DNA from: Candidatus Melainabacteria bacterium
GTDB lineage: Bacteria > Cyanobacteriota > Vampirovibrionia > Obscuribacterales > JAKAZS01
Assembly (NCBI GenBank): GCA_027371815.1
Contig: DAHXLC010000078.1
Span: 1 to 37,894, forward strand
Direction: 5' to 3'
DNA length: 37,894 nucleotides
The notes below the pieces were generated by a model that was given only the letters and a program-made list of their open reading frames with translations, had not been told where the DNA came from and ran no database searches. Positions 1 to 26,423 of the stretch are shown piece after piece. Within the stretch, counting starts at the first letter, position 1. The number at the start of each line of letters is the position of its first letter. The translations under genes were made by a program, and so were the position numbers.

Positions 1-990
1 CCCATTAGAATAAATATAATTATAAACAGTATAGGGTTTACGTAACATTTCGCGCATCCATTCAGTAGTCCCAGTAACCATGAAACCACATAATAAGAAC
101 ATTAACGATATACCAAAGGTAAAGCCCTTAGGATTAAGATATGGTCCTACATAAGCAAAAACAACAATAGTACCGGATAAAATTAAACTCAAATAAGTAG
201 CTCTAGTTAAAATAGAAAAATTGCCTACCCCTGACGTTTGAATACCATTAGCAATAGTCATAATAGTTTCATGCGGAATTTGGGTAAAGTACCAAAATCC
301 AATTATTGGTCCAGCAATAAATACAGGCATTAACCATTTAGCACTATATTTCACCATTCTTTCTCTTAAATTATCATCTTTAATCCTACTAGAAGTAACT
401 AAAGCATAAATACCAGCTATGGCTAACATAATTAAAATACGAATAAATAAAGACGGAAAATACGTTGGGTTTAAAAATCCATCTAACCAATTATGCGTTT
501 GAATCCATTTTCCTGGGGTCAACATAAAAGTTAAAATGCCATTAATAATAACCAAGGTAAACACTGAAAACCATAAATACAAATTAGCTAATTTAAGATG
601 AATTTCCTTAGAAACTTTGTCCCAAGTATAATAATAAGCAAAAGCTGTAGCTATTTCAGCCGCAAAAAACAAATATTCCCAGGCCCAAGCAAAAGCAAAG
701 TTTTGAATTAAAATCGCAATCGTATCAGGTGAAACCAGACTAACCGAAAACCAGATACCCACTCCAGTAATTGCACCACCAGCGGTAGTTATTAAGACAA
801 AAAAACGAGTATGTTTTTTTAAATAGTCATAAATACCTTCATCGTTTTCTTTATAGGCTTTACGTTCAGTTAAGGCTAAATAAAAACCACTACCAACTGC
901 AAAATGTGAAATAAATATATGGATTATGGAAATTATCCCGATAATCCAGCTACCACCTAAAAATGGCACCAGCCAAATAGGATAATTCAT
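1..990 (-). CDS. Polytopic membrane protein, cytochrome bd subunit I (CydA)-like without a long Q-loop (tentative). The 3' end is cut by the window edge.
   Basis: Absent from the ORF track because it runs off the window. My reverse-complement translation from the ATG at 990..988 stays open for all 330 codons down to nt 1: MNYPIWLVPFLGGSWIIGIISIIHIFISHFAVGSGFYLALTE...FAWAWEYLFFAAEIATAFAYYYTWDKVSKEIH...INGILTFMLTPGKW...TGTTEWMREMLRKPYTVYNYIYSNG. The start overlaps the cytochrome b stop (ATGA at 987..990). The sequence is very hydrophobic with many predicted TM helices. The motifs recall the CydA helix-1 His region, FFxE...GW and E..GRQPW; this is from memory, not computed. Confidence 0.6.
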   Translation of the reverse strand, partial: MNYPIWLVPFLGGSWIIGIISIIHIFISHFAVGSGFYLALTERKAYKENDEGIYDYLKKHTRFFVLITTAGGAITGVGIWFSVSLVSPDTIAILIQNFAFAWAWEYLFFAAEIATAFAYYYTWDKVSKEIHLKLANLYLWFSVFTLVIINGILTFMLTPGKWIQTHNWLDGFLNPTYFPSLFIRILIMLAIAGIYALVTSSRIKDDNLRERMVKYSAKWLMPVFIAGPIIGFWYFTQIPHETIMTIANGIQTSGVGNFSILTRATYLSLILSGTIVVFAYVGPYLNPKGFTFGISLMFLLCGFMVTGTTEWMREMLRKPYTVYNYIYSNG

Positions 991-2087
991 GATAAAGCCC
1001 CCCAAATAGAAAATACAATCATGGAAAGTAAAACTATTAGACCAAAATAAGTAGCTAATTGAGCTAATTTTTGCGATCTTCCCTTATCCCAAAATGGCAC
1101 CAAACCAAGGATTAAAACAATTAAACCAATTATGGTAATGCCAAATAATTCACCTTCAATTGGCCCAATATAAGCTGGGATTAATTTTAAGAATTGAAAC
1201 ATCGCTAAAAAATACCATTCAGGCTTTATACCTATAGGCGCTGGTGCAAATGGATTAGCTTCTTCACCTAGACCCCAAGGTAAAAAAGTAACTAATACGA
1301 ATAAAACATTTAGCGCTAAAATCCAAACTAATAAATCTTTAAAAATAAAATCGGGGAAGAATTTTTCATACTTAACTTCATTTACTTTAATGCTTTTAGG
1401 TGTGGAAATACCTTGTAATTGAATTAACAACAAATGAATTCCTAACAAACCAAATAACAACAAAGGTAAAATAATTACATGAATAGTAAAAAATCTGGAT
1501 AAGGTATTTTGCGAAATTATACTACCACCTCTTAAAACTGTAGCCAATTGGTCACCTAATACTGGGACTTTAGAGGTAATATCTAGACCAATTTTAGTTG
1601 CAAATAAAGAAACCTGATCCCAGGGTAATAAATATCCCGTAAAACCAAATCCCATAACTAAGACTAATAAACCCATACCAACCAGCCAGGTAATTTCCCG
1701 TGGCTTACGATAAGCTTTCATAAAATAAGTACTAAATAAATGCAAAAAAACCACAAATATCATTAAATTTGCCGCCCAACAATGCAGTGAACGCACAAAC
1801 CAGCCAAAATCAATACGGGTATTTATTTTTAAAATACTGGCATGAGCTGAATTTAAATCCGGTACATAATATATCATAAGTAAAATACCAGTTATAATCT
1901 GAACAATTAAAAACATTAAGGAAATTCCACCCATATAATACCAAACTGAATGTTTATGGATTGGGACTTCTTTTTTTTGGGCTATTTGCCAAATTGAAAC
2001 TAAATCCATTCGTTCATTTAACCATTTAAATAATGGATTCATTGATTTTTCCGGATCATTACTTTCGGGCAATAGTTCTGTAGCCAT
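987..2087 (-). CDS. petB: Cytochrome b, b6-like N-terminal half fused to a subunit IV-like C-terminal half
   Basis: Collinear with cytochrome b6: FGWFVRSLHCWAANLMIFVVFLHLF gives the helix B His pair. FFTIHVIILPLLLFGLLGIH gives the helix D His pair with 14 intervening residues, which is b6/Firmicute-type spacing. LPWDQ is present and PEWYF lies in the C-terminal half. The residue at the b6 Cys35 position is Tyr (VWYYMGG), so no covalent heme ci site is apparent. I prefer the ATG at 2087 (MATELLPE), preceded by TGAGG 9 nt upstream, over the TTG at 2102. Confidence 0.95.
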   Translation of the reverse strand: MATELLPESNDPEKSMNPLFKWLNERMDLVSIWQIAQKKEVPIHKHSVWYYMGGISLMFLIVQIITGILLMIYYVPDLNSAHASILKINTRIDFGWFVRSLHCWAANLMIFVVFLHLFSTYFMKAYRKPREITWLVGMGLLVLVMGFGFTGYLLPWDQVSLFATKIGLDITSKVPVLGDQLATVLRGGSIISQNTLSRFFTIHVIILPLLLFGLLGIHLLLIQLQGISTPKSIKVNEVKYEKFFPDFIFKDLLVWILALNVLFVLVTFLPWGLGEEANPFAPAPIGIKPEWYFLAMFQFLKLIPAYIGPIEGELFGITIIGLIVLILGLVPFWDKGRSQKLAQLATYFGLIVLLSMIVFSIWGALS

Positions 2088-2115
2088 GGTTTTAAACCTC
2101 AAAAAAAAAGTAAAT

Positions 2116-2601
2116 TTAAGCTCTGCTTACAACAATACTATCATTTTCAACTTTAACAGCTAACGCCGACAATGGTTTAGGGGGAGGGCCTGACACATTT
2201 TTACCGGTATCCGGATTATAACAGCCACCATGACATGCGCACCAGATGAGACTTTTATCTGATCGATATTGCACCGTACAGCCTAAATGCGTACACACAG
2301 CATTAAATGCATGAAAGCTACCATCTTGAGCATGAATAACTATGGCTGGTGAACTGCCAAATTGAAAATTTTTACCCGTATTAACCGGCAATTCAGCAAC
2401 TTTACACACTGTCACACTACTTACATTAGATTCGCTAGATGTAGCATCACTATTTCCTGAAGCAAGATACCTGTAAATAGGATAAAGCGCCATGCCCGCC
2501 CAGGATAAAGAAAACACACCCAATACCATTTTTAAAAACTGTTTTCGCCCTACTGGTTGAATTGGTTCGGTTGTTTTCCATTCATTAGAGACTTTTTCCA
2601 T
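2116..2601 (-). CDS. petC: Rieske [2Fe-2S] iron-sulfur subunit
   Basis: Both cluster-binding boxes are present: CTHLGCTV and CACHGGCY. An N-terminal TM anchor is preceded by GRKQFLK, an RK variant of the twin-arginine motif. The gene lies immediately upstream of cytochrome b on the same strand. Confidence 0.95.
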   Translation of the reverse strand: MEKVSNEWKTTEPIQPVGRKQFLKMVLGVFSLSWAGMALYPIYRYLASGNSDATSSESNVSSVTVCKVAELPVNTGKNFQFGSSPAIVIHAQDGSFHAFNAVCTHLGCTVQYRSDKSLIWCACHGGCYNPDTGKNVSGPPPKPLSALAVKVENDSIVVSRA

Positions 2602-2621
2602 GATTTACTTCCTCAATAATT

Positions 2622-3764
2622 TTAAACTGATTTTTTTTGATGAAATGCATTCCAGATCAAATGACTTAACCAATAAAAATAATAAATTAGCCCAATAGCC
2701 GAAATGGAAAAGATTATAATTAAATCCCATTGCATTTTAACGGGAACTAATTCTGGTTTAATTAAATTTTGAAAATAAAAAGAACGTAATTCATGACGAT
2801 TAATTATCATAGCCAAAACAACCGACAAACCAAGTGTCAATTCAGCATAATACGCTTTAACACTGCCACTAAAACTAGCTAGTGCGCTAGCTAATAGCGC
2901 TAACAAAGCTAAAAACATTGCCAAGCTAAATACCAGCGTACTGATTTTATCCTGACCCATAAAATTTACCATAATATCATGTGGTATCGAAAATAAAAAC
3001 CAAACGCCCACAGGAATTTGTAATAAAGTTATACCTAAAAATATTTTCGAACCAAGTTTAATGGCAAATTTACTAAATTCATCTTGATTGTCGACTCGAT
3101 AAGCTCCCAAACCAGCAACAGCCAAACCAGCTATAGCAATGGCTGCAAGTACGAAATGACTATAACGAGCAAGCAATTGTGGCTCATGAAGATTTAAATT
3201 TAAACCAGTCGGATGTGCCATATACATAGCTAACCATTTTTGCGGCGTTAACATTAATGTAGTATTATTGGTAAACAAAAAAGCAATAGTTAAAAAACCC
3301 ATAAAACCAATAAATAATAATATGACAGCTTTAACGTCAGCTGGAGACTTATCATTTTTCTGCGTATTAAGATATCGGTAAATTACAATATAGGTAATAT
3401 AATATGAAACCAACAATAAAAACAATATCGAAATCCAAGGAACCGCAATTAATACTGAAGCAGTATAGAACATTGGCCCATATAGCAATTGGATAAACAA
3501 TAATGGAACAATGCCTTGAGTTATGGCAAAAGATATAAAAATTGGCAATGAATAAGCCAATCTTCGTCCTAATTGATAAATATTTGAATCATGGTTATTG
3601 CGTCCAAAAAATAAAAATATTGGCGCTAAAAGCGATCCCCCTAGAGATACATTCATGGGAACAACATGCAAAAAAAATCCCAATACTAATAATAGCTCTA
3701 AAAACCAAACTGGAGCCGGCATAGGAAGATTTTGATAATTAGGAATTATATTGTGTATATCCAT
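2622..3764 (-). CDS. Polytopic membrane protein, paralog of the 1..990 product (bd-like superfamily, tentative); first gene of the operon
   Basis: 380 aa, about 10 hydrophobic segments, no Cys at all. It shares motifs at matching positions with the 1..990 product: FLHVVPMNVSLGGS vs ISHFAVGSGF, TLMLTPQKW vs LTFMLTPGKW, and EPQLLARYSHFVLAAIAIAG vs NPTYFPSLFIRILIMLAIAG. It is separated from the Rieske gene by 20 nt. Confidence 0.55.
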   Translation of the reverse strand: MDIHNIIPNYQNLPMPAPVWFLELLLVLGFFLHVVPMNVSLGGSLLAPIFLFFGRNNHDSNIYQLGRRLAYSLPIFISFAITQGIVPLLFIQLLYGPMFYTASVLIAVPWISILFLLLVSYYITYIVIYRYLNTQKNDKSPADVKAVILLFIGFMGFLTIAFLFTNNTTLMLTPQKWLAMYMAHPTGLNLNLHEPQLLARYSHFVLAAIAIAGLAVAGLGAYRVDNQDEFSKFAIKLGSKIFLGITLLQIPVGVWFLFSIPHDIMVNFMGQDKISTLVFSLAMFLALLALLASALASFSGSVKAYYAELTLGLSVVLAMIINRHELRSFYFQNLIKPELVPVKMQWDLIIIFSISAIGLIYYFYWLSHLIWNAFHQKKSV

Positions 3765-4144
3765 ATAATTAAATCCCTTGAAAAAAGCTTAATCAATACA
3801 ATTATATTAAGCAACTAACCACTAACTACTTAACTTATAATTACTTTCATTAAATCAATAGAAAGTCTAAAACAAATCCTTCCAAAGGATGATTTATGCC
3901 AATGACATCCTTGCTTGTCAATTCGTTAATAATAGACTTAAGCTAAACTTATGCTTACCAATTCAACATACCCCATATCAATTAAGCTTACTTTTTAATC
4001 ACTAGACTGAAATAGCACACGTTTGCATATCCATCACAACTCCAAAGGCTATACCAAAATTAAATTGCCAAAATATCCCTAAATTTAATGTAAAATCCAA
4101 CAAAATATATTATTATTTGGTCGTAAAGTCCAGATTATGGTATA

Positions 4145-5536
4145 TTGTCAAGTTTGTCCTTAACCAAGCCACCAGTTATAAATAAGACCAATAGCTTAAT
4201 TCAAGCCTGTACTAAAGTAATCAAGCAAAAATCAGCATCATTTCATATCCCTGGCCATAAAAGCCATAAACAATTTAACCACTTCCTATCTAACGGTCAA
4301 AGCTACGATCTTACTGAGTTAGTGAACTTAGATGATTTATACCATCCCCAATCAACGATAAAAAAAATCGAAACTGATTTAAGTTCAAAATTTGGCTCAG
4401 TCGAAAGCATTATATCAACCAATGGTGCTTCTTCTCTTATTATTGCCAGTCTAATTGAAATAGCCAAATTTGGTACTAGGGTTATAGTCCCAGTAAATAG
4501 CCATGTAAGCGTAATAAATGCCTTAATTCTAACTGGCCTTGAACCCATCTGGCTCGAACCTGATTATGATGAAAACTGGAATTTATATACCACGATAAAT
4601 ATTACAAAACTTAAAAATACTTTAAGTAATAACAAAAACGAACAAATTGCGGGTTTGATTATCACATCACCAACTTACGCTGGAGACGTTAGCAATATTT
4701 CTCAAATTGCTCAAATCTGTCAAGAAGCTAATATTTACCTTATTGTTGATGAATCGCATGGCAGTCATTTATTGTTTAATGGTCAAGAGTCTCTTAGCGC
4801 CCTTAAAACTACCGCCCACATTGTTATCCACTCGTTACATAAAACCTTATCAGCACTAACCCAATCAGCCTGCCTTCACATTAATCAAAAATTACCTTTT
4901 AATACCAATGATCTGAAAAACAATTTAAAACTCATTTCAACATCTAGTCCTAGCTATTTGATCATGTTATCTATTGAAGAAAGTTTGAAAAATTTAAATT
5001 CGGAAAATTTCATATCAGTAAATAATATTCAAACTGAAATCAACCAAAATTTAGCATCACTAAACCATATTTATCATTATAAACCAAATCACCAAATAGA
5101 TTCATGGCATATTTTAATAAAAAGCAACAGTATTACTAGTGATAAATTAGCATCGTTTTTAATAAATCAGGGTATTTATCCGGAAGGTTTAATCGGTAAT
5201 GGAGTGTTATTAATGCTCGGTCTTGGTTCTCAAAATAATGATAGTAAATTTTTACGCAAAGCATTAAATGCCTTTAAAGAATCCAAACCCCAAACAAATT
5301 CAGTCAGTCCCAAATTTAATAAACCATTACCTTTGTTTAACCAGGTAATGTCACCACGACAAGCCTATTTTGCTAAAACCAAAACGATCAAAGTTGCGGA
5401 TAGTCTTAATAAAATTAGCGCCCAAAATATATCTATTTGCCCTCCTGGTACACCTCTAATCGTACCAGGTGCTATCATTACTCAAGAAATTAAAAATAAT
5501 ATCAAGGATTTATCAATTAAAATTGTTAATGTATAA
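4145..5536 (+). CDS. PLP-dependent Orn/Lys/Arg decarboxylase family protein
   Basis: It has the N-terminal FHIPGHK motif typical of this family (compare the Bacillus YaaO/SpeA-like FHVPGHK). It also has the S-x-HK PLP-lysine motif (HSLHKTL) and DESHG. The start is uncertain: TTG at 4145 or 4154, no ATG, no clear SD. Confidence 0.8.
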   Translation: MSSLSLTKPPVINKTNSLIQACTKVIKQKSASFHIPGHKSHKQFNHFLSNGQSYDLTELVNLDDLYHPQSTIKKIETDLSSKFGSVESIISTNGASSLIIASLIEIAKFGTRVIVPVNSHVSVINALILTGLEPIWLEPDYDENWNLYTTINITKLKNTLSNNKNEQIAGLIITSPTYAGDVSNISQIAQICQEANIYLIVDESHGSHLLFNGQESLSALKTTAHIVIHSLHKTLSALTQSACLHINQKLPFNTNDLKNNLKLISTSSPSYLIMLSIEESLKNLNSENFISVNNIQTEINQNLASLNHIYHYKPNHQIDSWHILIKSNSITSDKLASFLINQGIYPEGLIGNGVLLMLGLGSQNNDSKFLRKALNAFKESKPQTNSVSPKFNKPLPLFNQVMSPRQAYFAKTKTIKVADSLNKISAQNISICPPGTPLIVPGAIITQEIKNNIKDLSIKIVNV

Positions 5537-5563
5537 TAAATTTACAACCTCAGGAGCAAACAA

Positions 5564-7159
5564 ATGGAAGTAATACCACCACCAGATGATTTAAATTCAT
5601 TTTTATTAATTTTGCCAGAACCAATAAAAAAAGTCCTTGAAAAAAATATCAATGGTCTTTATGAGGTAGTTTTAGATCTTGGACGCAAACCTGAAGCTAG
5701 ATACTTAGATAAACATACCTTGTTTTTAGCTGATAAAAATATAACGTTTAGCGATCTAGATTATGCCGTTAGTAAAATTGGTGATTTTTCTGCTGATAAT
5801 CGAGCGGGGATTGAAAGCACCTTACATCGCATCTCGGCTATCCGCAATCGCAGTGGTAAAGTTATTGGTTTAACCTGTAGAGTTGGGCGGGCAGTTACCG
5901 GAACTATTGAAATTATGTCTGATTTAATTTCTTCGGGCAAATCAATCTTATTTTTAGGGCCTCCTGGGGTCGGTAAAACTACTAAACTTAGAGAAATTAC
6001 CCGCGTATTAGCTGATGAAATTGGCAAACGGGTTATTGTGATTGACACATCCAATGAAATTGCTGGTGATGGGGATGTCCCACATCCGGCTATCGGCAGA
6101 GCCCGAAGAATGCAAGTATCATGTCCAGCACTCCAGCATCATGTTATGATTGAAGCTGTTGAAAATCACACACCTGAAGTGATTGTCATTGATGAAATTG
6201 GCACTATGGAAGAGGCTAGTGCAGCTCGCACTATAGCCGAACGGGGTGTGATGCTAATTGGTACGGCTCACGGTAATGCTTTAGAAAATTTAATTAAAAA
6301 TCCAACCCTGGTTGATTTAGTTGGGGGGATTCAGGCTGTAACTTTAGGTGACGATGAAGCCAGGCGACGTGGCACGCAAAAAACGGTTCTGGAACGTTCT
6401 AATAAACCAACTTTTGAAATCTGCGTAGAAATTATTGACCGGCTAACTATAGCAGTTCATCCCAACGTGGGTGAGGCGGTTGATCAATTACTTAGAGGTT
6501 GGAAAATTCATCCTGAAGTCCGTAGGCGTGATGATAGTACCGGCAAGGTTAGTGTCGTTCAGCCGAAAGTTAACACCATTGTCCCTAATTCACTAGAATT
6601 AATTCAAGGCGCTTTAGACAATCCAGCTATTACACTTAATCCCGGTGATACCGAATTAAAAATTTATCCCTATGCCGTAAGTAAAGGCTTACTAGAAAGA
6701 GTAATTAAATCTTTAGGTTTGCCAGCTATCGTCGTTAAAACTATTGATGAAGCCGATGCAATCTTAGCCTTAAAAAGTTATGCGCGCTCTGGAGCTAAAA
6801 TCTTTTCTTTAGCTGAAGCCAATGAAATTCCCATTTATATTGTAAAAAGCAATAGTTTACCGCAAATTCAAAAAGTTTTACGCATGGCCTTAAAACTTGA
6901 TGATGATTCAATAACTTCCATAGATTTAGAAGGTGATATTGATGAGACCGAAATTGCCCTAGAAGAAACCCGTCAAATCATTAATAAAGTTATGGATAAA
7001 CAAGAGCCAATGGAATTAACCCCGCGTAGAGCCTATATTCGCAGACTACAACACCAATTAGTTGAACAGCATAAATTAAGTTCGCGCAGCATTGGTGATG
7101 AACCCATGCGTCGCTTGAAAATATTGCCCGGTGGCAATAGTAATTTAGGCTTTATTTAA
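5564..7159 (+). CDS. AAA+ ATPase with C-terminal R3H domain (Ycf45 / SpoIIIAA-like nucleic-acid-binding protein)
   Basis: Walker A is GPPGVGKTT and Walker B is VIVIDEIG. The C-terminal R3H-like segment is RRAYIRRLQHQLVEQHKLSSRSIGDEPMRRLKILP. A GGAG SD precedes the ATG. Confidence 0.8.
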   Translation: MEVIPPPDDLNSFLLILPEPIKKVLEKNINGLYEVVLDLGRKPEARYLDKHTLFLADKNITFSDLDYAVSKIGDFSADNRAGIESTLHRISAIRNRSGKVIGLTCRVGRAVTGTIEIMSDLISSGKSILFLGPPGVGKTTKLREITRVLADEIGKRVIVIDTSNEIAGDGDVPHPAIGRARRMQVSCPALQHHVMIEAVENHTPEVIVIDEIGTMEEASAARTIAERGVMLIGTAHGNALENLIKNPTLVDLVGGIQAVTLGDDEARRRGTQKTVLERSNKPTFEICVEIIDRLTIAVHPNVGEAVDQLLRGWKIHPEVRRRDDSTGKVSVVQPKVNTIVPNSLELIQGALDNPAITLNPGDTELKIYPYAVSKGLLERVIKSLGLPAIVVKTIDEADAILALKSYARSGAKIFSLAEANEIPIYIVKSNSLPQIQKVLRMALKLDDDSITSIDLEGDIDETEIALEETRQIINKVMDKQEPMELTPRRAYIRRLQHQLVEQHKLSSRSIGDEPMRRLKILPGGNSNLGFI

Positions 7160-7236: not shown

Positions 7237-7815
7237 CTAAAACGGCATAAAAGTTGCTTCAGCTAAAGATTTAGTTATACTGGCAATTTTTAATTCTACT
7301 TGTTTTACTTGAGCCTGATTATCTTTGTATAAAACTTCTAAGGCTTGAGGAACTTTTTCTGCGGGCAATTCAAGCGCCTGATTAAATTTTTTCATGAAAT
7401 CTTCACTTTGTTGTTTTAAACCAGCTTCTGGTCCATTAGGATGAGCAGTAATCGCATCAATACCGTTTTTATCTGGTGACACATTCGAAGATTCATTACC
7501 TTTAACATCTTTATGTAAAATTTCTGGGCCGGCAATTACTTTAATATCATCACCTTTGCCGTCTTTATGCAAAATTTCTGGGCCGGCAATTGCTTTAATA
7601 TCATCACCTTTGCCGTCTTTATGCAAAATTTCTACTCCAGAATTAGCGGTCTTATCAGCACTTTTCGCTACTGCAGAACCATCACCTGAACTAGCATTCT
7701 TATTACCATCCATCAATTGTTTGGCCGCAATACCAAAACCATTTAATTTACTCTGTTTACCTTCACTACCATCTGATTTAATTTTTTTCAATTTTGTTTG
7801 GAACTGGTTCTTCAA
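7237..7815 (-). CDS. Hypothetical hydrophilic protein with tandem 18-aa repeats
   Basis: 192-aa ORF with a TTG start and no signal peptide or TM segment. It is Lys/Asp/Gly/Ser-rich. The central EILHKDGKGDDIK(A/V)IAGP unit is repeated about 2.6 times. The C-terminal part looks helical (ALELPAEKVPQALEVLYKDNQAQVKQVELKIASITKSL). I recognise no family. Confidence 0.5.
   Translation of the reverse strand: MKNQFQTKLKKIKSDGSEGKQSKLNGFGIAAKQLMDGNKNASSGDGSAVAKSADKTANSGVEILHKDGKGDDIKAIAGPEILHKDGKGDDIKVIAGPEILHKDVKGNESSNVSPDKNGIDAITAHPNGPEAGLKQQSEDFMKKFNQALELPAEKVPQALEVLYKDNQAQVKQVELKIASITKSLAEATFMPF
7508..7636. repeat. 54-bp in-frame tandem repeat, about 2.4 copies
   Basis: The unit tctttatg(t/c)aaaatttctgggccggcaatt(a/g)ctttaatatcatcacctttgccg occurs at 7508..7561 and 7562..7615. 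A partial third copy follows from 7616. Confidence 0.9.
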
Positions 7816-8574: not shown

Positions 8575-8712
8575 ATGAAATTCACCAGCAACCAACAGAT
8601 TTTTATTAAATTCTCTTAACCTTAATAATGTATTTATTTAAACAAGGTATAGAAATTAGTTATTTTAATTATAATACAAGTAAGCCCCTATGTTAATTCT
8701 AATCTAAATCCC

Positions 8713-10851
8713 ATGCAAAATGAAGCACTTATTAGTATCTTAATTGTTGACGACCAAGAAGAAAACCTCTTAGCGTTAGAATCAGTTTTAACAGCACTCA
8801 ATATCAACATCGTAAAGGCCAGTTCTGGTAAAGAAGCACTAAGAAAACTACTTAACCAGGATTTTGCCTTAATTATCATGGATGTACGCATGCCAGAAAT
8901 TGATGGGATTGAAACGGCAAAATTAATTCGCCAACGGGAAAAAACCAAATTCATCCCTATCATTTTTTTAACCGCTAGCTATGCAGCCAATAATGATTTA
9001 CTAACACAAGAAGCTTATAAATTGGGAGCCATCGACTATATTAACAAACCATTTATTCCAGAAATTTTAAAAGCCAAAACCCAGGTGTTTATTGAACTTT
9101 ACCGGCAAACTGAAAATAATCGCAAACAATCACTGTTAATCAGTGAATTCAAAGCCCGTGAATATGAAAACCGCATTAATGAAGCTAAACAACAGGCTGA
9201 AACAGAAACCAATAAAATCCGGCAGGAATTATTAAGACAAGAAATTGAAGCCAATATTCTTGAAGAAAAAAATCGTAAAATAGCTACTGCCAATAAACTC
9301 AAAAGCGAATTTCTGGCTAATATGAGCCATGAAATCCGCACCCCAATGAATGGTATTATTGGACTTACCGATTTGTTGCTTAATTCTAATCTAGATACAG
9401 AACAAAGTGAATGTCTTAATTTAATCAAAGAATCAGCTGAAGCCTTACTGGATATTATAAATGATGTCTTAGACTTAGCTAAAATCGAATCAGGCAAACT
9501 TAGCCTAAATGAAATCAATTTTAATTTAGTCAAATTAATTGAAAGCAGTATGGATATTCTTGCTAATAACGCCAGAGCCAAAAACATCAGTTTACTTAGC
9601 TCCATAACACCCAATACCCCTCTAATACTTAAAGGCGACTTTGGTCGTTTACGCCAGGTTTTAATTAATTTAATTGGCAATGCCATTAAATTTACTAATG
9701 AAGGAGAAGTTATCATTAATGTAACTAACATTAATGATAGCAATCCCGAAAAGCCCATTTTACGCTTTTCAATAACTGATACCGGTATTGGTTTTACCCA
9801 AGAGGATTTACCAAAAATTTTCACCCCTTTTACCCAATTTAATCACCAAAATGAAACTAGCCACAGTGGTAGTGGACTTGGTTTGTCAATTTGCAAAAGA
9901 ATAATTGAACTAATGGGTGGCAAAATTGGTATTGAAAATAATGAAAATCGTGGTTCTACTTTCTGGTTTGAAATTATGCTAAAATTAGCCAATTCAGACC
10001 CCTCTAATGAACTGCCGAGAATTGAACAACTGAATCAAAGTGATATTTTAGGAAAAAAAATATTACTTATTTCCCATAATAAAAACTTAAATAAAGTGAT
10101 AAACAATAATCTTAAGTCCTGGGGATTTACCAATTTTACGGTTACCGATATACCTGAAGCAATCCAATTTCTTACCAATCCACTTAACCTCAACATCGAT
10201 TTAATTCTGTTGGACAACACTTTTACAGTTCAAGATAATCAATCAGAAATTTGCCAAGAAATTGAATTTCTTAATCAGAAGGCTAAACTTATAATTTTAA
10301 CTAATAGCAAATTAGAAAGTATTCACAATGATGACAAGAAAATAATCCTCCAAAAACCAATTCGTTCATCTAAACTTTATGATAATATCCTAAATTTACT
10401 TACTCCCAGTTCGACTACACAACCACTACCTAAAACGGCGTTGCCCAAAGACAAAATCACTCATGGTGGAAAAATATTACTAGCTGAGGATAATTTAGTA
10501 AATCAAAAAGTCGCCTTACTCCAATTAGAAAAACTAGGCTACCAAGTTGATGTTGCCTTTAATGGCCAAGAAGTCTTAGCCGCCATCAATAACAACCATT
10601 ACGATTTAATCTTAATGGACTGTCAAATGCCAGAAACAGACGGATTTGAAGCCACAAGACAAATTCGAAATTCAAATAACCCTAACCTTAAAAATATAAA
10701 AATTATTGGTTTAACAGCTCAAGCGATGGATGGCGATCGGCAGCGTTGCCTTTTAGCCGGAATGGACGATTACCTAAGTAAGCCAGCAACAATGGAAAGG
10801 CTTAAAGAAACTATTGAAAAATGGGTTTTACCAAATTTAGAAACAAATTGA
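8713..10851 (+). CDS. Hybrid sensor histidine kinase / response regulator (REC, coiled coil, HisKA, HATPase_c, degenerate REC, REC)
   Basis: The N-terminal receiver is [10 protein letters not shown]...[12 protein letters not shown]. The H-box is [17 protein letters not shown]1 and G2 boxes are present ([26 protein letters not shown]). The C-terminal receiver is [11 protein letters not shown]...[12 protein letters not shown]...KP. Confidence 0.9.
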
Positions 10852-10885: not shown

Positions 10886-13800
10886 TTAGGTTATGCTGGG
10901 GATTTTATTATACAGCCAAACGCGTAAAAGTGATAACAATAATTCAATATCTACAGGCTTGGCGATATAATCACTAGCACCAGCATCAAGGCATTTTTCC
11001 TTATCTCCTTTCATGGCCTTGGCTGTTAAAGCAATTATGGGCAAATCGTGAAACTTTTCCAATTCACGAATTTTTTTAATGGTTTTATAACCATCCAATT
11101 CCGGCATCATAATATCCATTAGGACAATGTCAATATTTTCCTGATTCCTTAATATTTCAATACCACTATAACCATTTTCAGCACTTAAAATATTCATGTG
11201 ATATTTTTCTAAAATAGCCGTTATGGCATAAATATTACGAATATCATCATCAACAATGAGAATCGTTTTATTACTTAAAATCGGATCAGCTTTCTTGGAT
11301 TCTTCAAGCATTTGTCGATTTACATTAGGCAGACTAGCTTCAGCCTTATGCAAAAATAAAGCAGTTAAATCTAATAGATACTCTTTTGACTTGGCTAATT
11401 TTAAGATTATTTTATCAGTGTATTTAGCAGCTAAATCTTCTAATTCATTTTCATTAAGAATCATAGCCCCAAGATCAAAGCCAGCAATAATAATTATTAA
11501 CTTGTCAATTTTTTCGTTGTTATGTATTGCTTCGAGTAATTTTATAAATTCATCAACTTCTAATTGCCTAGCTAAAATTAATATATTAATAAATTTAGCT
11601 ACGGCAACATTAACTATTTCATCAGGATTTTCAACAAAAAACATTTCACTGCCCAAACATTCTAAAAGTTCTTTGTACTCTTCATTATGCTCATTATTGG
11701 TATAAAATAAAATACTGGTACTATTCTGTTCAATAGCTTGTTTTAATTTTAAGATAATCTCCTGGATCTGATCTAATGTAGTGGGTTTTTGCATAAGTCC
11801 TAAAGCACCATAGGATAAAACTCGGCGTTTTTTGGCTTGCGAAGAAATTATATAAATTGGCAAATGCCTACTTATAAATTTATGCTTTAACTGATCAAAT
11901 AAAGCCCAACCATCAGCCAGACTAATATCAGTATCAAGAATTATTCCCTTTATAGCAAATTTGTCCAAAAGTTTAAATACATTGTCTGTTGGATTTACTA
12001 CAATACTTTTAAGACCACTCTCATGCAGGACTTTTAAAAACATGCTAGCATAACTTAAATCATCTTCTATTAAAAGAATAAGCTGATCATTTTCTAATAA
12101 ATTCAAGCGATCATCTTTAATCAAATCATTTTTCAATAAGGTCTGAGAAGACATTTCTAAATTTAATTTTGGGATAATTGATGGTTCTGGTAATTTTCCT
12201 AACAAGGTCAAACTGTCATTGACACTATGCCCCGTAAATACTCTGGGCAAATACAAGGTAAACACCGAGCCTTCCTGAATTTTACTATACAAATGAATTT
12301 CACCACCTAAAATCCTGGCAATTTCACGGCTGATGGGTAGACCTAAACCAGTGCCACCATATTTACGATTAGTACTACCATCAGCTTGCTGAAAAGCTTC
12401 GAAAATCAGCCCATGCTTATCTTTAGGTATACCAATACCTGTATCAATTACCCTAAACGCCAGAATATGTTCCTGATTCAGTAATGCAGGTGACTGTAAA
12501 TTTAAATTTTTACTACTAATTTGCTCTAGCTGTAAAGTCACACTGCCTCTTTCAGTAAATTTAAAGGCATTAGAAAGCAGGTTTTTAATTATCTGCATTA
12601 ATCTTTTACTATCCGTAAAAATTGTTTTAGGTAAAATGTTTTTCATACTAACAACAAATGCTAGTTTTTTGTCATTAGCTATTTCACTAAAATTGCGTTC
12701 AGCATACTGCAACAAATCTTCTAAATTAACTTCACTGATTTCTAAAGACATAGTTCCTGATTCGATTTTTGAAAGATCTAAGATGTCATTAATTAAAGCC
12801 AATAACTCAGAACCTGCATTATAAATCGTTCGCGCAAAATCAATTTGTTTTGCCGTTAAATTACCTTCCATATTATCAGCTAACATTTGCGATAATATTA
12901 ACAGTGAATTAAGTGGCGTTCTTAATTCATGAGACATATTAGCTAAAAATTCTGATTTGTATTTAGAAGCTAAAGATAATTGCTCAGCTTTTTCAAGCAT
13001 CGACAATCGCGCCTGTTCAATTTCTCGATTTTTGGTCTCAACCTCACTATTTTGAACACCTAGCAATCTGGCTTTTTCTTCTAAATCTTCATTAGTCGTT
13101 CTAAGTTCTTCTTGTTGCTGATATAGTCTTTCTTCACTAGCTTGTAAATTTAAAGCCTGTTGTTCAAGCCGTTTATTTGTTTCGGTTAATTCTTGCTGTT
13201 GTTGCTGTAATTCACGAGCTAACGACTGTGACTGAATTAATAAATTTTCCGTACGCATATTAGCTTCAATAGTATTAATAACGATACCAATGCCTTCGGT
13301 TAACTGATCCAGAAAAGCTAAATGAATATCACTAAATATATTCAACGAAGCCAATTCAATAATAGCTCTAATTTCACCTTCAAACAATACTGGTAAGACA
13401 ACTAAATTTACCGGCCGCGCTTCACCTAAACCAGAACTGATTTTAATATAGTCATCAGGAATTTCTAGCAAAAGTATGCGTTGCTTTTCTACTGCACATT
13501 GACCAATAATTCCTTCACGAAGTCCATAGCGATCCGATAAATGACGGCGACGTTGATAGGCATAACTACCCAGTAGTCTTAACTCGGGTTCACCTAAATC
13601 ATTTTCTTCTTTAATATAAAATACACCTAATTGAGCCTCAACCAAAGGTGCTAGTTCAGCTAAAACTAGATTTGCTACAGTTAAAAGATCGCGTTGGCCT
13701 TGAAGCATTTTGGTAAATTTAGCCAGGTTGGTTTTTAACCAATCTTGTTCGGTATTTTTCTGTGTAGTGTCTTTTAAATTGCGAATCATTTCATTAATAT

Positions 13801-16489
13801 TATCTTTAAGTAAAGCCACTTCCCCACTAGCTTTAACCGAAATAGATCGAGTAAGATCACCTTTAGTAACAGCCGTAGACACTTCCGAAATAGCACGTAC
13901 CTGCGTCGTCAAATTAGCCGCTAGTTGATTAACGTTATCGGTAAGATCCTTCCAGGTTCCGCTTGCTCCAGGAACTCTAGCCTGTCCACCCAAAACACCT
14001 TCAACGCCTACTTCACGAGCTACGGTCGTAACTTGTTCTGCAAACGTAGCCAAATTGTCAATCATTTCATTAATAATATCTGCTAATTCAGCTATTTCAC
14101 CCCGAGCAGTTAAAACCAATTTACGCTTTAAATTACCACTAGCTACAGCTGATACAACAACAGCAATACCACGCACTTGTTCGGTTAAATTGCTGGCCAT
14201 AACATTTACCGAATCGGTCAGATCTTTCCAGGTGCCTGATACTCCTTTTACATAAGCCTGACCACCTAGTTTACCTTCAGTACCTACTTCTCGAGCCACA
14301 CGGGTGACTTCACTAGCAAATGAACTTAATTGATCCACCATGGTATTTATGGTATTTTTTAATTCTAAGATTTCCCCTTTAACATCGACGGTAATAGTTT
14401 TTGAAAGATCACCAGTAGCTACAGCTGTTGTGACATCAGCAATATTACGCACCTGATTAGTTAAATTGCTGGCCATATAATTTACTGAGTCGGTGAGATC
14501 TTTCCAGGTTCCGGATACTCCTTTTACATAAGCCTGACCACCTAATTTCCCTTCAGTACCGACTTCTCTAGCTACACGCGTAACTTCATTAGAAAATGAA
14601 CCTAACTGATCTACCATGGTATTAATCGTGTTTTTTAATTCTAAGATTTCCCCTTTAACATCGACGGTAATTTTTTTAGAAAGATCGCCACTAGCTACAG
14701 CTGTTGTCACATCAGCAATATTACGCACCTGATTAGTTAAATTACTAGCCATTGAGTTTACTGAATCAGTAAGATCTTTCCAGGTTCCGGATACCCCTTT
14801 TACATCAGCCTGACCACCAAGCTTACCTTCAGTACCGACTTCTCTGGCTACACGAGTTACTTCACTGGAAAATGAACTTAATTGATCCACCATTGTATTT
14901 ATCGTATTTTTTAATTCTAAGATTTCCCCTTTAACATCAACCGTGATTTTCCGGGAAAGATCCCCTGTAGCTACAGCAGTTGTGACATCAGCTAAACCAC
15001 GCACCTGCTCAGTTAAATTACTAGCCATCGAATTTACTGAGTCTGTAAGATCCTTCCAAGTGCCAGATACTCCTTTTACATCAGCCTGACCACCTAATTT
15101 TCCTTCACTGCCAACTTCTCGAGCTACACGGGTAACTTCACTAGCAAATGAACCTAACTGATCTACCATCGTATTTATCGTGTTTTTTAACTCTAAGATT
15201 TCCCCTTTAACATCGACACTAATTTTTTTAGAAAGATCGCCTGTAGCTACAGCAGTAGTGACATCAGCTATACCACGCACTTGTTCGGTTAAGTTACTGG
15301 CCATCGAATTTACTGAGTCCGTAAGATCTTTCCAGGTTCCCGATACCCCTTTAACATAAGCCTGTCCACCAAGTTTACCTTCAGTTCCTACTTCTCGAGC
15401 CACACGGGTTACTTCACTAGCAAATGAACTTAACTGATCCACCATGGTATTTATGGTATTTTTTAATTCTAAGATTTCGCCTTTAACATCTACGGTAATA
15501 GTTTTCGAAAGATCGCCAGTAGCTACAGCTGTGGTAACACTAGCTATATTACGCACCTGACTGGTAAGATTACTGGCCATGGAATTTACTGAATCAGTAA
15601 GATCCTTCCATGTCCCCGATATTCCTTTAACATAAGCCTGTCCACCAAGTTTACCTTCTGTACCCACTTCTCGAGCCACACGAGTTACTTCACTAGAAAA
15701 AGAACTTAACTGATCCACCATCGTATTTATGGTATTTTTTAATTCTAAAATTTCGCCACGCACATCTACGGTAATTTTTTTAGAAAGATCACCAGTAGCT
15801 ACAGCAGTGGTCACATCTGCAATATTACGTACTTGATTGGTTAAATTGCTGGCCATCGAATTTACCGAATCGGTAAGATCCTTCCATGTTCCTGATACAC
15901 CTTTTACATAGGCTTGACCTCCTAGTTTACCTTCAGTGCCAACTTCTCGAGCCACACGAGTTACTTCACTAGCAAAAGAACCTAATTGATCAACCATTAT
16001 ATTTATGGTTTTAGCTAATTTTAAAAATTCACCTTTTAATTGAAAGCCTTCTATTTCTAAAGGCATGGTTTGTGACAAATCACCTTTAGCTACGGCACCT
16101 ATAACCCTTGCCACTTCAGTAGTCGGTCGCACTAAGTCACCAACCATTGAATTTACATAATTAACACAATTGGCCCACGATCCTGGTGCATTAGTCAAAG
16201 TTGCTCTTTGGGTAATTTTACCTTCCTTGCCAACTTGATGACTTAAACGCGCCAACTCATGCTCTAAATCATTACTTAATTCACAAGCCTGATTAAACGC
16301 TATAGCAATTTCACCAGCAATGCCAATTTGATCTAGTGGTAACCTTTGCGTAAAATCACCTTTAGCATAAGCTCTTAAGGCTTTAAGCAATTCTTTGGCA
16401 TCCAAATCAACATTGCTATCAATTGTAGTTTTAACAGCTTTATTACTACTAGTTACTTTACGAGCCTTGGTTGTTTGTGAATTTGGCAT
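10886..16489 (-). CDS. Giant soluble hybrid histidine kinase: poly-HAMP array, GAF, long coiled coil, HisKA, HATPase_c, REC, degenerate REC, REC
   Basis: 1867-aa ORF with a GAGG SD 7 nt upstream of the ATG and no N-terminal TM segment. It has nine consecutive 92-aa di-HAMP-like units. A GAF-like segment follows ([19 protein letters not shown]...[10 protein letters not shown]). A Gln/Glu-rich coiled coil comes next. The H-box is [15 protein letters not shown], with [16 protein letters not shown] and [10 protein letters not shown]. The terminal receiver is [10 protein letters not shown]...[12 protein letters not shown]...KP. Confidence 0.95.
13778..16399. repeat. In-frame 276-bp (92-aa) tandem repeat array encoding HAMP pairs; the near-identical core is about 14054..15985
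   Basis: The unit is L(G/S)SF(A/S)[87 protein letters not shown]. It is present 6.5 times with only a handful of substitutions; units 1 and 2 differ at 7 of 92 residues. Divergent units flank it on both sides. The coordinates were derived from residue numbers. Confidence 0.95.
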
Positions 16490-20763: not shown

Positions 20764-21273
20764 TCAATAAGGATAATATCCATAAGGATAGACAGGTTGA
20801 TAGTAGACTGGCGGTACATAATTATAATAGCTGTAAGGCAGATAGCCATAGCTATTAATTATGCTCCAGAAATACCAAGGCAGAGGATTCCAGCCACCAT
20901 TAAAGAAATAAAAGTACCGGCCATAAGAATCACAATAATAATGGTTAAAATCCCTATCCCCAAAAACATTATGCGGAAACCAACCATTATAACCACCACG
21001 ATAACCGCCATAATAACCACCACGATAGCCGCCAGCATAACCACCGCGATAGCCGCCATAATAACCACCACGATAGCCGCCAACATAACCACCACGATAG
21101 CCAACACGATTAATTACAGCGGCATGGTTATTATAGCTTGCGCTAGACCCACCAACCATACCACGAACACTCGAGAAACTAGGCGTACTTGCATTAGCTT
21201 GTCCGATTGCAACAAAGATTAAAACGGCTGCAATTAAAAAACCAAACATGAAATTACGATTTTTCGTATTCAT
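20764..21273 (-). CDS. Secreted Gly/Tyr/Arg-rich low-complexity protein
   Basis: The ATG at 21273 is preceded by AAGGAG with a 7-nt spacer; the TTG at 21300 in the ORF track is less likely. The signal peptide is MNTKNRNFMFGFLIAAVLIFVAIGQANA/S. Five GYRGGY(V/Y/A/Y/N)G octads follow. Then comes an aromatic tail, WFPHNVFGDRDFNHYYCDSYGRYFYFFNGGWNPLPWYFW...YYNYVPPVYYQPVYPYGYYPY. A good terminator lies downstream. Confidence 0.75.
   Translation of the reverse strand: MNTKNRNFMFGFLIAAVLIFVAIGQANASTPSFSSVRGMVGGSSASYNNHAAVINRVGYRGGYVGGYRGGYYGGYRGGYAGGYRGGYYGGYRGGYNGWFPHNVFGDRDFNHYYCDSYGRYFYFFNGGWNPLPWYFWSIINSYGYLPYSYYNYVPPVYYQPVYPYGYYPY
20983..21102. repeat. 24-bp in-frame tandem repeat, 5 copies, encoding GYRGGYxG
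   Basis: The plus strand shows ataaccacc(a/g)cgata(a/g)ccgcc-type units. The translation is GYRGGYVG GYRGGYYG GYRGGYAG GYRGGYYG GYRGGYNG. Confidence 0.9.
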
Positions 21274-21702
21274 AACAATTCTCCTTATCTTTTTGCCCAA
21301 AATATTTGGGGTTATTTGCTTGCAGTTGAAATCAAAAAATTAAATAATTAGCGCTTTCCTTCAAAATAAAAAATAAAAAATTTATACTTTACATCCTAAC
21401 AATTTGAATCAAAATATCAAAATTTATTTTTTGAATAAATTAATAAAATTTACTATTTTATGCAGTTACCAAAATTATCACTTGGTTTTTCTGATTAAAA
21501 TTAGTAAAATTACTAAACTTCGACATTAGCGCAACTCTACTAATAGCTATTGTTTTTAAGCCGCTAATTTAGCTTAACAAAAAAGTTATTTACCTACAGC
21601 TCAACCAAAATTTATTTATCAACTTATGCCAACCAATATAAAACAACTAGCATAATTAAACTAAGCCTACAACAATTTTAAATTTTGAATAATTGAAACA
21701 GT

Positions 21703-24165: not shown

Positions 24166-25200
24166 TCAATTTTCAAATAAGTCTAAAGGCAAGTCGTCAA
24201 CATTAAAATCAGGTATTTTACTCATAGCGCTAAGAAAACAATCAACAATTTTAATATCAAACTGTTTGCCTTTAAATTTATTAAGTTCAGCTACGGCTAA
24301 ATTATGACCAATAGCCTTACGATAGGGGCGATCTGATGTCATTGCGTCATAAGCATCCGCCACCAAAATAATTTTTGATCCTAAAGGTATTTCTTCATCC
24401 AGCAAATTAGCCGGATAACCACTTCCATCAACGAATTCATGATGATATAAAACATAGTCTTTAACCTTATCCAACATTTTTAAATTTTCGACAATGTGAG
24501 CCGAAGTAACTGGATGTAAATTCATTATCTGTTTTTCAGTAATATCTAAAGCTGATTCCTTCCAAAGAATTGATTCTGGAACCCCAATTTTACCAATATC
24601 ATGTAAAACGCCACCCAGACCCAAATAAAACAAATCAGCATCAAGTAAATTTAAAGACTTACCAATAAATATTGCCAGTTTACCAACCCTAAGACTGTGG
24701 CCAGCAGTATAGCCACATTTAGCATCCAAGGCACAACTTAGGGCTTCAATAACATATTGAACGGGCAAGCGCTGTTTTACATTATGCTGTTCAGCTGAAT
24801 TGTTACTTAAACCAGAAATCAATTGCGAAATTTGCTTAACATGACTAATCATTTCAAGATTACTTGCGGGTAATGTCAAATAAAGATCTATTAAATTTTG
24901 CTTGAAGCCCTGGATAATTTTATCCTCAATTAAATTATTCGCTTTATCAACGAGTAAAATATTAATTATGCCAGGATTAACTACTTTAACCTGTTGAAAC
25001 AAAGTAAAATCATCATTTAAAATATTATTATGTGCAACTACAACTTTAACATTTGAGTCTTTAACAATCGTTTCAACTAAATCAATTTGATTAACGACCG
25101 AAGTGGGAATATCAGCCAAATGAAATTGATCACAATAATCTTTATATTGCTTTAAAAGCTCGGGTCTTACTAATAATATCGAAGAAAGTTTAGACAGCAT
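24166..25200 (-). CDS. HD-GYP domain phosphodiesterase with a degenerate receiver-like N-terminal domain
   Basis: It has HSLRVG, VLHDIGKIGVP and HHEFVDGSGYP motifs. The N-terminal roughly 125 aa has a REC-like beta/alpha pattern. It lacks the acidic pocket: ILLVRPE instead of DD/DE, and VVVAHNN instead of the phospho-Asp. The start is uncertain (ATG at 25200, 25227 or 25257). Confidence 0.85.
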   Translation of the reverse strand: MLSKLSSILLVRPELLKQYKDYCDQFHLADIPTSVVNQIDLVETIVKDSNVKVVVAHNNILNDDFTLFQQVKVVNPGIINILLVDKANNLIEDKIIQGFKQNLIDLYLTLPASNLEMISHVKQISQLISGLSNNSAEQHNVKQRLPVQYVIEALSCALDAKCGYTAGHSLRVGKLAIFIGKSLNLLDADLFYLGLGGVLHDIGKIGVPESILWKESALDITEKQIMNLHPVTSAHIVENLKMLDKVKDYVLYHHEFVDGSGYPANLLDEEIPLGSKIILVADAYDAMTSDRPYRKAIGHNLAVAELNKFKGKQFDIKIVDCFLSAMSKIPDFNVDDLPLDLFEN

Positions 25201-25308
25201 CAAAAAAAGTTTAACTAAAAAAAACATTACCCTATGTTTAACACACAGAATTAACATTATACTAAAGTAATAGCTTAATTAGATAAGGCTTTAAAAAATT
25301 TTTGACAA

Positions 25309-25530
25309 TTAATAAGTAAAAGCCGAAGCACCACCAGTTAACATTAAATGGCGAGTCTTATTGATTTTTAAATCTTGACAACTGTTACTTGGCAAAGTTA
25401 TACTTCGTGCGATATTTACTGATTCAGTAGCTTGAACGTGATAAGAATTAGGGTTTTGGCTAACTAGATGAGATACAATTAAAAGCGGTACAATAATATT
25501 AATAATATTGATTTTAGGGTTTAACATCAT
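25309..25530 (-). CDS. Possible small secreted or hydrophobic protein (hypothetical)
   Basis: 73-aa ORF with a hydrophobic N-terminus (INIINIIVPLLIVSHLV), lying in an otherwise unassigned gap upstream of the HD-GYP gene. The SD is weak and there is no recognisable motif. Confidence 0.25.
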   Translation of the reverse strand: MMLNPKINIINIIVPLLIVSHLVSQNPNSYHVQATESVNIARSITLPSNSCQDLKINKTRHLMLTGGASAFTY

Positions 25531-25700
25531 CTATTTCTCAATAACCTATATAGCCAGTATAGGCCTAAATTTAAAATAAGCAAGAAAAAATTAAATATTT
25601 TTTAGCTATTTGGTCAATAATTAGATTTCTTTTATCTTTGGCATTTTTCTTACAATTAGCGATTGTCCTTTATAGTAAAGATTACCCAAACTTAATTAAT

Positions 25701-26423
25701 ATGATTCAAAAAATATTTAAGCTATACACCATTGTTTATTTAATAATTAGCTTTAACAACCAAAATCTCCTGGCCAAATCAATTTGTGTTAAAAATAGTA
25801 CTTTAATAAACAAAAAAATGAACATCGATATTGAATACCCTCAAATTAATGTACCTTCAAAATTAAACATTGCTATAAATAAATTAATTAATGAAGAAAA
25901 ATCATTTTATCTTAAATACCTAAATTACAATTATCCGCATAAAAACACTCAAGAAGTCTACCAAAACTCAAGCTTAAACATATCCTCTAATATTGCCTAT
26001 CAGACCCCAAATTTTATTTCATTGGCGGTATATTCAACCAACTCAGTTTATGGCTCGGCTCATGGAAGCGACAATGTAACTGCTTTTAATTATATTGCGG
26101 CTCAAGATAAAATTTTAAGTATTCAGGACTGTTTTAGACCTAAGACTAACTATTTAACTACTATCAAAAATTTAGCTGCTGCTGACTTAGCTAGACAGTT
26201 AGCCAAAGACAAAACTTTTAACATAAATACAATTTCAACATTAATTGAAGCTAAAAATGAAACTTTTAGAAATTTTACCCTTACCCGAACCAGTATAATT
26301 ATTTATTTCAATGAATATGAGGTTTTACCCTATTTTATGGGTATTCAAAAAGTAAATATCGACTTAAAATCCCTTACTAAATATGTAAGACCTGAGATTT
26401 TAGCAATTCTACATGGCCACTAA
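25701..26423 (+). CDS. Secreted DUF4163/DUF3298-like (RsiV/PdaC-type) domain protein
   Basis: The ATG at 25701 gives the signal peptide MIQKIFKLYTIVYLIISFNNQNLLA. IDIEYPQI matches the DUF4163-type start. The C-terminal IIIYFNEYEVLPYFMGIQKVNIDL matches the DUF3298 Y-x-I-A-P-Y-A-x-G-type motif (recalled from memory). Confidence 0.6.
   Translation: MIQKIFKLYTIVYLIISFNNQNLLAKSICVKNSTLINKKMNIDIEYPQINVPSKLNIAINKLINEEKSFYLKYLNYNYPHKNTQEVYQNSSLNISSNIAYQTPNFISLAVYSTNSVYGSAHGSDNVTAFNYIAAQDKILSIQDCFRPKTNYLTTIKNLAAADLARQLAKDKTFNINTISTLIEAKNETFRNFTLTRTSIIIYFNEYEVLPYFMGIQKVNIDLKSLTKYVRPEILAILHGH

Follow-up and report, generated by a model that had tools for sequence, protein, structure and literature searches.

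A melainabacterial operon with Rieske and cytochrome b genes between the two genes of a cytochrome bd-like OR-C pair

The window analyzed here is a stretch of 37,894 nucleotides (nt) from Candidatus Melainabacteria bacterium (GenBank assembly GCA_027371815.1, contig DAHXLC010000078.1, positions 1 to 37,894). At its left edge lies an operon of four genes, encoding a Rieske protein, a cytochrome b and two membrane proteins with a cytochrome bd fold, which we call the 'a' and 'b' subunits. We found that this operon is a conserved, so far undescribed variant of the OR-C family of bd-like proteins. All four genes are co-directional, on the minus strand, within positions 1..3764 (aa, amino acids):

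3764..2622, minus strand: OR-C1b-like 'b' subunit (upstream gene, first), a 380-aa polytopic membrane protein with a bd fold
2601..2116, minus strand: Rieske [2Fe-2S] protein, 161 aa, with CTHLGC and CACHGGCY boxes
2087..987, minus strand: cytochrome b, 366 aa from ATG, with a b6-like N-terminal part and a subunit-IV-like C-terminal part
990..1, minus strand: OR-C1a-like 'a' subunit (downstream gene, last), 330/452 codons visible, open at the window edge
987..990, minus strand: ATGA start/stop overlap of the cytochrome b and 'a' subunit genes, 4 nt, read directly in the sequence
3765..4144, no strand: intergenic region between the operon and a divergent decarboxylase-like gene, 380 nt, presumed promoter region from its position only

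The spacers measure 20 nt between the 'b' subunit and Rieske genes and 28 nt between the Rieske and cytochrome b genes. A first-pass annotation of this DNA had described the four-gene layout with the same two gaps and the ATGA overlap, and both the coordinates and the direct reading bear it out. Scans of positions 1..4300 for sigma-70 promoters and terminators returned sites no more frequent than in shuffled sequence.

The Rieske protein matches Pfam PF00355 (E=7.8e-15). Its top NCBIfam models are those of PetC from the cytochrome b6f complex, with scores under their cut-offs. Across 57 operon homologs (the window and the 56 distinct loci described below), the cluster ligands and disulfide cysteines are essentially invariant, as are the boxes CTHLGC and CACHGG-x-Y, and the cluster histidine H124 of box II is found in 56/57. 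Cytochrome b matches PF00033 (3.6e-49) and, in its subunit-IV-like part, PF00032 (4.4e-9). Its histidine pairs are H102-x13-H116 in helix B and H203-x14-H218 in helix D, the latter with b6-type spacing. The nearest solved relatives are cyanobacterial and plant b6 (E=5e-57), whose heme-ci Cys35 is aligned to Tyr51, so that the b6-type spacing and the Tyr at the heme-ci position noted from the sequence at first pass were both recovered. All 57 operon cytochromes b keep the four heme histidines and the x14 spacing. At the heme-ci site, Tyr occurs in 54/57 and Cys in 0/57. The motif PEWY is present at residues 289-292 of the window protein, the only one in which it was read. Since the heme and cluster ligands are essentially invariant, the quinol module is predicted to be functional.

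This module shares the helix D H-x14-H spacing and a PetC-like Rieske protein with cytochrome b6f. However, its b6 and subunit IV parts are fused in one protein of 366 aa, a Tyr replaces the heme-ci Cys, and neither the operon nor its immediate surroundings contain a cytochrome f gene. It differs from cytochrome bc1 as well, with x14 rather than H-x13-H in helix D and no c1 gene in or next to the operon.

The window fragment of the 'a' subunit matches PF01654 (Cyt_bd_oxida_I) with 31.3 bits against a cut-off of 26.2, and the full-length homolog P0001, which is 99% identical to it, scores 31.0 bits. A profile of the 'a' family built from 29 homologs aligns with Geobacillus CydA (5doq_A) over helices 1-4 (E=3.9e-11). 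The hhalign comparison of the family with the single E. coli CydA sequence is weak (E=0.0025), but its register agrees with that of the significant match to Geobacillus. These alignments pair H24 with H19 of CydA, E105 and E112 with E. coli E99 and E107, and H131 with H126. In the AlphaFold2 model (mean predicted local distance difference test, pLDDT, 79.6), the top 20 Foldseek matches in the PDB are all cytochrome bd subunits. The model has eight predicted helices and a short loop between transmembrane helices 6 and 7, which leaves no Q-loop.

The first-pass annotation had recognized motifs of bd subunit I in this protein, with a helix-1 His in ISHFAVG. The family assignment stands, by the PF01654 match and the aligned channel residues, but the helix-1 ligand is H24 (SIIHIF), which is invariant, and not H29 of ISHFAVG, which is kept in 72/76 homologs. 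The remark that the last motif comes about 130 residues earlier than in E. coli CydA, without a long Q-loop, agrees with the measured distance: TEWMRE lies 135 residues ahead of E. coli E445. Over 76 homologs the invariant residues are H24, E42, E105, E112, H131, E310, R313, E314, C373, C376, H377 and M418. E310-x-x-R313 resembles E445-x-x-R448 of E. coli CydA, and we suggest that the second ligand of the active-site heme (E310 = E445) may be retained. No His is present at residues 180-190, and the b558 ligands H186 and M393 of subunit I have no equivalents.

None of the four products visible in the window (1..3764) contains a CxxCH motif, as the first-pass annotation had noted. The apparent absence of a c-type cytochrome comes from the window edge, which truncates the last gene after 330 of its 452 codons. 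Searching with the exact upstream protein led to two contigs (L085 and L086) that are 100% identical to window 1..6664 and extend beyond its edge. Read in L085, the full 'a' gene encodes 452 aa, identical over the visible 330 residues, and the 122 residues past the edge carry a C-terminal monoheme cytochrome c domain, with CMSCH at 373-377 and the Met-ligand motif GIM418PP. The 'a' homologs are about 450 aa long and many have Pfam cytochrome c domains; the family profile also matches cytochrome c domains in sequence comparison. CxxCH stands at a similar position in 81/81 'a' homologs of at least 400 residues (two are end-truncated fragments). Given the eight helices and a CydA-like periplasmic N-terminus, the heme c domain would be periplasmic.

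A complex without a c-type cytochrome, in which the Rieske protein reduces the bd-like pair directly, would fit the visible 3764 nt, where CxxCH is missing. It is refuted by CMSCH and Met418 in the full gene and by CxxCH in every one of those homologs, and we give it almost no credence. Likewise, the proposal that the bd-like pair receives the Rieske electrons in place of a cytochrome c1/f did not hold, since a heme c is fused to the truncated gene's product. No further CxxCH gene was found past the operon: its neighbors in L085 lie on the opposite strand or lack CxxCH, and the same is true of a 91%-identical relative (L004) and of Candidatus Obscuribacter, where no CxxCH gene adjoins the operon. 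The motif in the truncated gene therefore belongs to a bd-like subunit, and not to a conventional c1/f-like protein. In the b6c-type complex of Bacillus (Firmicutes), a c-type cytochrome is fused to a membrane subunit.

No Pfam or NCBIfam family, PF01654 and PF02322 included, matches the upstream 'b' subunit at E<=1, and all of its named homologs are annotated as hypothetical. Thus only the downstream protein matches a bd profile, PF01654, and the upstream one matches neither. Its AlphaFold2 model (pLDDT 91.7) places it structurally: the top 15 Foldseek matches in the PDB are all cytochrome bd subunits I or II, with a TM-score (template modeling score) of 0.75 to 5doq_A. For both models the significant PDB neighbors are only cytochrome bd subunits, with subunit I ranked before subunit II. 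An identity as NrfD-like proteins or transporters is ruled out for either membrane protein by these bd-only neighbors. At the sequence level, the 'b' family profile found no bd chain among PDB sequences, only a chance viral match, and hhalign of the family against single E. coli CydA or CydB gave probabilities below 1%.

The paralogy of the two membrane proteins, proposed at first pass, was confirmed by BLASTP (E=2e-5 over 124 residues) and by hhalign of the two families (96% probability, E=1.5e-9, 171 columns). Among 71 genomic homologs of the 'b' subunit, H33 is conserved in 71/71, H203 in 69/71 and M319 in 71/71. In the global hhalign comparison, H33 falls on H24 of the 'a' subunit, and EPQLLARYSH203 is in register with E. 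coli NPVAQVKFVH186. The upstream protein thus has a His at the position of the b558 ligand His186 and the downstream one has none, as had been noted. By the profile alignment and the motif register, H33 and H203 would correspond to H19 and H186 of CydA. The 'b' subunit has no channel glutamates. It would occupy the position of CydB without being a passive CydB-like partner, and it may bind its own b heme or hemes.

The 'a' and 'b' genes occur together in 67/71 distinct loci that are uncut at the relevant end. With the bd fold of both proteins and their paralogy, this co-occurrence upholds the view of a CydA/CydB-like pair. The comparisons above establish the identity and fold of the four products and the C-terminal heme c domain. 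The 'b' family has 2821 matches at E<=1e-3 among representatives clustered at 50% identity.

Two homologs of the 'b' subunit depart in length. The 560-aa P0292 has a longer C-terminus with an extra hydrophobic segment and a CLTCH domain, so that heme c binding seems to extend to the second subunit in this lineage. The 501-aa P0316 has a C-terminal extension without CxxCH. A candidate fusion of 'a' and 'b' (P0385, 807 aa), considered as Rosetta-stone evidence that the two subunits touch, was rejected: where the Met ligand of the cytochrome c domain should lie, it has an Arg-rich stretch of the kind that frameshifts in GC-rich DNA typically produce.

These properties bear on whether the operon could encode an ordinary bc-type complex, where the CydA-like domain only anchors a c1-equivalent heme c and the electrons exit to a separate oxidase. 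The CxxCH of the truncated gene would suit such a role, and Melainabacteria are reported with other oxidases, including a cbb3 type beside another petB/petC set. But a mere anchor would not keep H24, E105, E112, H131 and E310 invariant across phyla, and it would have no use for a conserved paralogous partner that has an invariant His as well. We regard this explanation as very unlikely.

Murali, Gennis and Hemp (2021; bioRxiv 10.1101/2021.01.16.426971) described the OR-C 'a' subunit as a protein of eight helices without a quinol site and with a C-terminal heme c extension, which keeps H19, E99 and E107 and is adjoined by a paralogous 'b' subunit. They proposed cytochrome c as the OR-C donor. 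According to the same study, no OR-C enzyme has ever been biochemically characterized, the family is frequent in anaerobes such as Desulfovibrionia, where the number of hemes c reaches 8, and the phylum table lists OR-C in Cyanobacteria. Pet genes are given there only beside OR-N1 and OR-N5. The authors count three superfamilies of oxygen reductases, among which only cytochrome bd is copper-free. Alternative complex III was connected with OR-N5 in a later study of Nitrospirales. For Melainabacteria BJ4A, Matheus Carnevali et al. (PMC6349859, Supplementary Note 6) mentioned, in a single uninterpreted sentence, a second cydA beside a second cytochrome b6 gene set. A full-text literature search by OR-C family names returned no other relevant papers.

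The numbering of the OR-C1a reference residues (H24, E105, E112, Y119, Y121, H131, V77 and W80) coincides with that of the 'a' subunit. Judged by its features, residue numbers, heme c extension and paralogous partner, the pair matches OR-C1a/OR-C1b. The first-pass annotation had pointed to Q-loop-less bd-like homologs that are functionally uncharacterized; they are indeed uncharacterized, but they are not unclassified, as they fit this published family. The window pair and OR-C1a/OR-C1b share about eight helices, the lack of a Q-loop and of b558 ligands, the equivalents of H19, E99 and E107, a C-terminal periplasmic CxxCH and a paralogous 'b' subunit without channel glutamates. In contrast to the published genes, which are adjacent, the Rieske and cytochrome b genes here lie between the subunits. 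The conservation of the 'b' ligands H33, H203 and M319 is not tabulated by Murali et al.

OR-N1 and OR-N5, found with petA/petB/petD or alternative complex III in Nitrospirota, Chloroflexota and Rubrobacter, also combine a bd-like pair lacking a quinol site with a quinol-oxidizing module, and this combination suggests a hard-wired quinol:O2 chain. Those proteins differ in having 10 to 14 helices, no fused heme c and W118/N120, whereas the present one has 8 helices, a heme c and Y119/Y121. The pet-linked OR-N5 was rejected as the class of this pair on the helix number, the heme c and the signature residues.

Canonical CydAB (E. coli, Geobacillus thermodenitrificans) shares with the pair the fold of both subunits and the first four 'a' helices with the heme ligand and proton channel. 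Here the Q-loop and H186/M393 are missing from the 'a' subunit, a heme c domain is added, and a CydA-like paralog that bears His takes the place of CydB. Since the 'a' subunit lacks H186 and M393, it would have no direct site for quinol oxidation. The actinobacterial bcc-aa3 and the melainabacterial petB/petC-cbb3 systems likewise connect Rieske/cytochrome b to an oxidase through a membrane-tethered heme c, with no soluble carrier, but their oxidase is of the heme-copper type and not a copper-free bd type.

The distribution of the operon was determined in a scan of one genome per GTDB species, which gave 80 loci annotated with profiles of the four proteins. With repeated copies of one Obscuribacter region counted once, 56 distinct loci have the order b-subunit, Rieske, cytochrome b, a-subunit, and the 4-nt overlap of the cytochrome b and 'a' subunit genes is kept in 44/56. 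Conservation of gene order and overlap is thereby established, in accord with the earlier suggestion of a conserved and translationally coupled linkage to Rieske/cytochrome b. The four-gene order occurs in all three aerobic melainabacterial orders (Obscuribacterales, Vampirovibrionales and Caenarcaniphilales), in the cultured acidobacterium Geothrix rubra, and in metagenome-assembled genomes labeled Zixibacteria, Latescibacterota and delta proteobacterium. Homologs of both bd-like proteins come nearly all from Melainabacteria/Vampirovibrionia.

In Terriglobia, Kryptonia, Ignavibacteria, Calditrichota and other groups, the a/b genes are directly adjacent and lack Rieske and cytochrome b. As the pair occurs alone in these phyla, it appears to be a self-contained cytochrome-c-oxidizing enzyme to which the quinol module was added. 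A neighbor-joining tree of 'a' subunits places all Rieske-linked ones in one clade, which points to a single origin of the arrangement. This clade is set apart by an insertion in a loop (254-257), by R263 and N286, and by R383, R392 and Y414 within the heme c domain. These features are consistent with a dedicated docking partner or surface.

The same gene orders are relevant to the idea that the products are separate co-transcribed enzymes that form no stable supercomplex, the fused heme c being reduced by collision or by another carrier. That would account for the pair without adjacent Rieske/cytochrome b in many phyla and at two Caenarcaniphilales loci. Yet no other c-type cytochrome is available in or next to the operon as an acceptor for the Rieske protein, the quinol module sits between the subunit genes with the overlap kept in 44/56 loci, and the heme c domain has conserved residues peculiar to the clade. 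We judge separate enzymes to be quite unlikely.

The two Caenarcaniphilales loci (L048 and L050) have 'a' subunits nearly identical to those of the Rieske-linked loci L046 and L047, which suggests that the quinol module was lost or moved elsewhere only recently. At two Ignavibacteria-type loci (L067 and L074), two tandem 'a' genes are followed by one 'b' gene, and the second copies form a separate deep branch.

Taken together, we propose that the operon probably encodes one respiratory unit, in which a Rieske/cytochrome b quinol module is wired to a cytochrome-c-dependent, bd-type OR-C terminal reductase. Quinol would be oxidized at the Qo site of cytochrome b, and one electron would reach the Qi site by way of both b hemes, in a Q cycle. 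The Rieske cluster would hand the other electron to the fused heme c of the 'a' subunit; this heme, in the role of cytochrome c1/f, would pass it on to the heme or hemes held by H24 and probably E310. O2 would be reduced at this heme site, with protons supplied through the E105/E112/H131 channel. The counterparts of the cytochrome bd residues that bind the active-site heme and form the proton channel are invariant here. In this scheme we infer the physical complex, its heme content and its acceptor. The bc-bd-like quinol:acceptor supercomplex of the first-pass annotation survives in an amended form, arguably strengthened, with the heme c replacing direct transfer from the Rieske protein.

Several points weigh against this proposal. 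The equivalence of E310 and E445 is drawn from the ExxR motif and its invariance only, and Murali et al. list no such residue for OR-C1a. The 'a' subunit is without either b558 ligand. Since no OR-C enzyme has been characterized, O2 reduction is assigned by homology alone, and the frequency of OR-C in anaerobes (Desulfovibrionia) makes acceptors other than O2 possible. Furthermore, L048 and L050 fall inside the Rieske-linked clade and have their b/a genes adjacent without the quinol module, so the linkage is not obligatory.

Some of these points would equally suit the same complex with another acceptor, where the OR-C pair reduces or detoxifies, for example, nitric oxide, H2O2 or nitrite with quinol-derived electrons. 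The uncharacterized family is abundant in strict anaerobes and has as many as 8 hemes c in Desulfovibrionia, a b558 site is missing from the 'a' subunit, and bd-like proteins of nitrite oxidizers have been given non-oxidase roles in the literature. We nevertheless consider another acceptor unlikely, as the heme ligand and both channel glutamates for the O2 chemistry of bd are invariant and the operon is found in melainabacterial orders described as aerobic.

A more far-reaching form of the proposed respiratory unit is that the four proteins make up an obligate, copper-free quinol:O2 supercomplex, in which the 'b' subunit carries its own b hemes on H33 and H203 and both paralogs share the redox work. 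As the clade occurs in all three aerobic melainabacterial orders, the supercomplex could date far back in the non-photosynthetic sister lineage of cyanobacteria, as a respiratory chain whose b6-type cytochrome b lacks heme ci and serves without photosynthesis. We put this forward tentatively, as a possibility with the chances against it.

To our knowledge, all characterized bd enzymes take their electrons directly from quinol and conserve little energy. A Q cycle added to a copper-free bd-type oxidase would roughly double the charge yield per electron. If the hard-wired unit is real, it would represent a third type of complex III-IV assembly, with a bd-type oxidase behind the Q cycle. The arrangement also bears on the respiratory modules of non-photosynthetic relatives of cyanobacteria. 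Geothrix rubra Red803, a cultured carrier of the four-gene operon, offers an experimental handle on the widespread OR-C family. Pfam has no model for the 'b' family, which comprises about 2800 clusters at 50% identity, and its recognition as a family of His-bearing bd-fold proteins would correct many annotations.

Beyond the operon, the window (GC about 32%) holds ordinary chromosomal genes, such as sensor kinases, NDH-1 antiporter-like subunits, 2-oxoacid:ferredoxin oxidoreductase and tRNAs. One of the sensor kinases (10886-16489, minus strand) is a hybrid protein of 1867 aa with nine consecutive HAMP domains, then GAF, HisKA/HATPase and two receiver domains. The DNA of its HAMP array contains a 276-nt tandem repeat at 14135-16009 (6.8 copies, 85% identity).

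Two other proteins also contain repeats and have no Pfam match. The first, of 192 aa (7237-7815, minus strand), has about three 18-residue units (EILHKDGKGDDIK.IAGP) encoded by a 54-nt tandem repeat at 7493-7665, and the copy number of this repeat appears different in the 91%-identical relative. The second is a 178-aa open reading frame (20764-21300, minus strand), where a 12/24-nt tandem repeat at 20984-21110 produces a short-period Gly/Tyr/Arg-rich peptide repeat.

A NuoN-like gene (29953-31554, minus strand) and a NuoL-like gene (31755-33752, plus strand) encode divergent NDH-1/Mrp antiporter-like subunits. Within the window they stand away from any further complex I genes, and the gene next to them (28051-29478) is flavin amine-oxidase- or desaturase-like. 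The region 25000-28000 has a GC content of 26%, against about 32% elsewhere, and contains two paralogous DUF3298 proteins (25638-26423 and 26551-27282).

Past the left edge of the window, contig L085 encodes a 583-aa protein without a Pfam match (8659-10410, plus strand) beside a gene with a WYL/WCX domain. Past the operon it also has two small Asn/Gly-rich open reading frames on the other strand, including 10407-10765 (minus strand). Near the right end of the window, a tRNA cluster Thr(TGT)-Tyr(GTA)-Thr(GGT) (37283-37611, plus strand) directly follows the 2-oxoacid:ferredoxin oxidoreductase genes.

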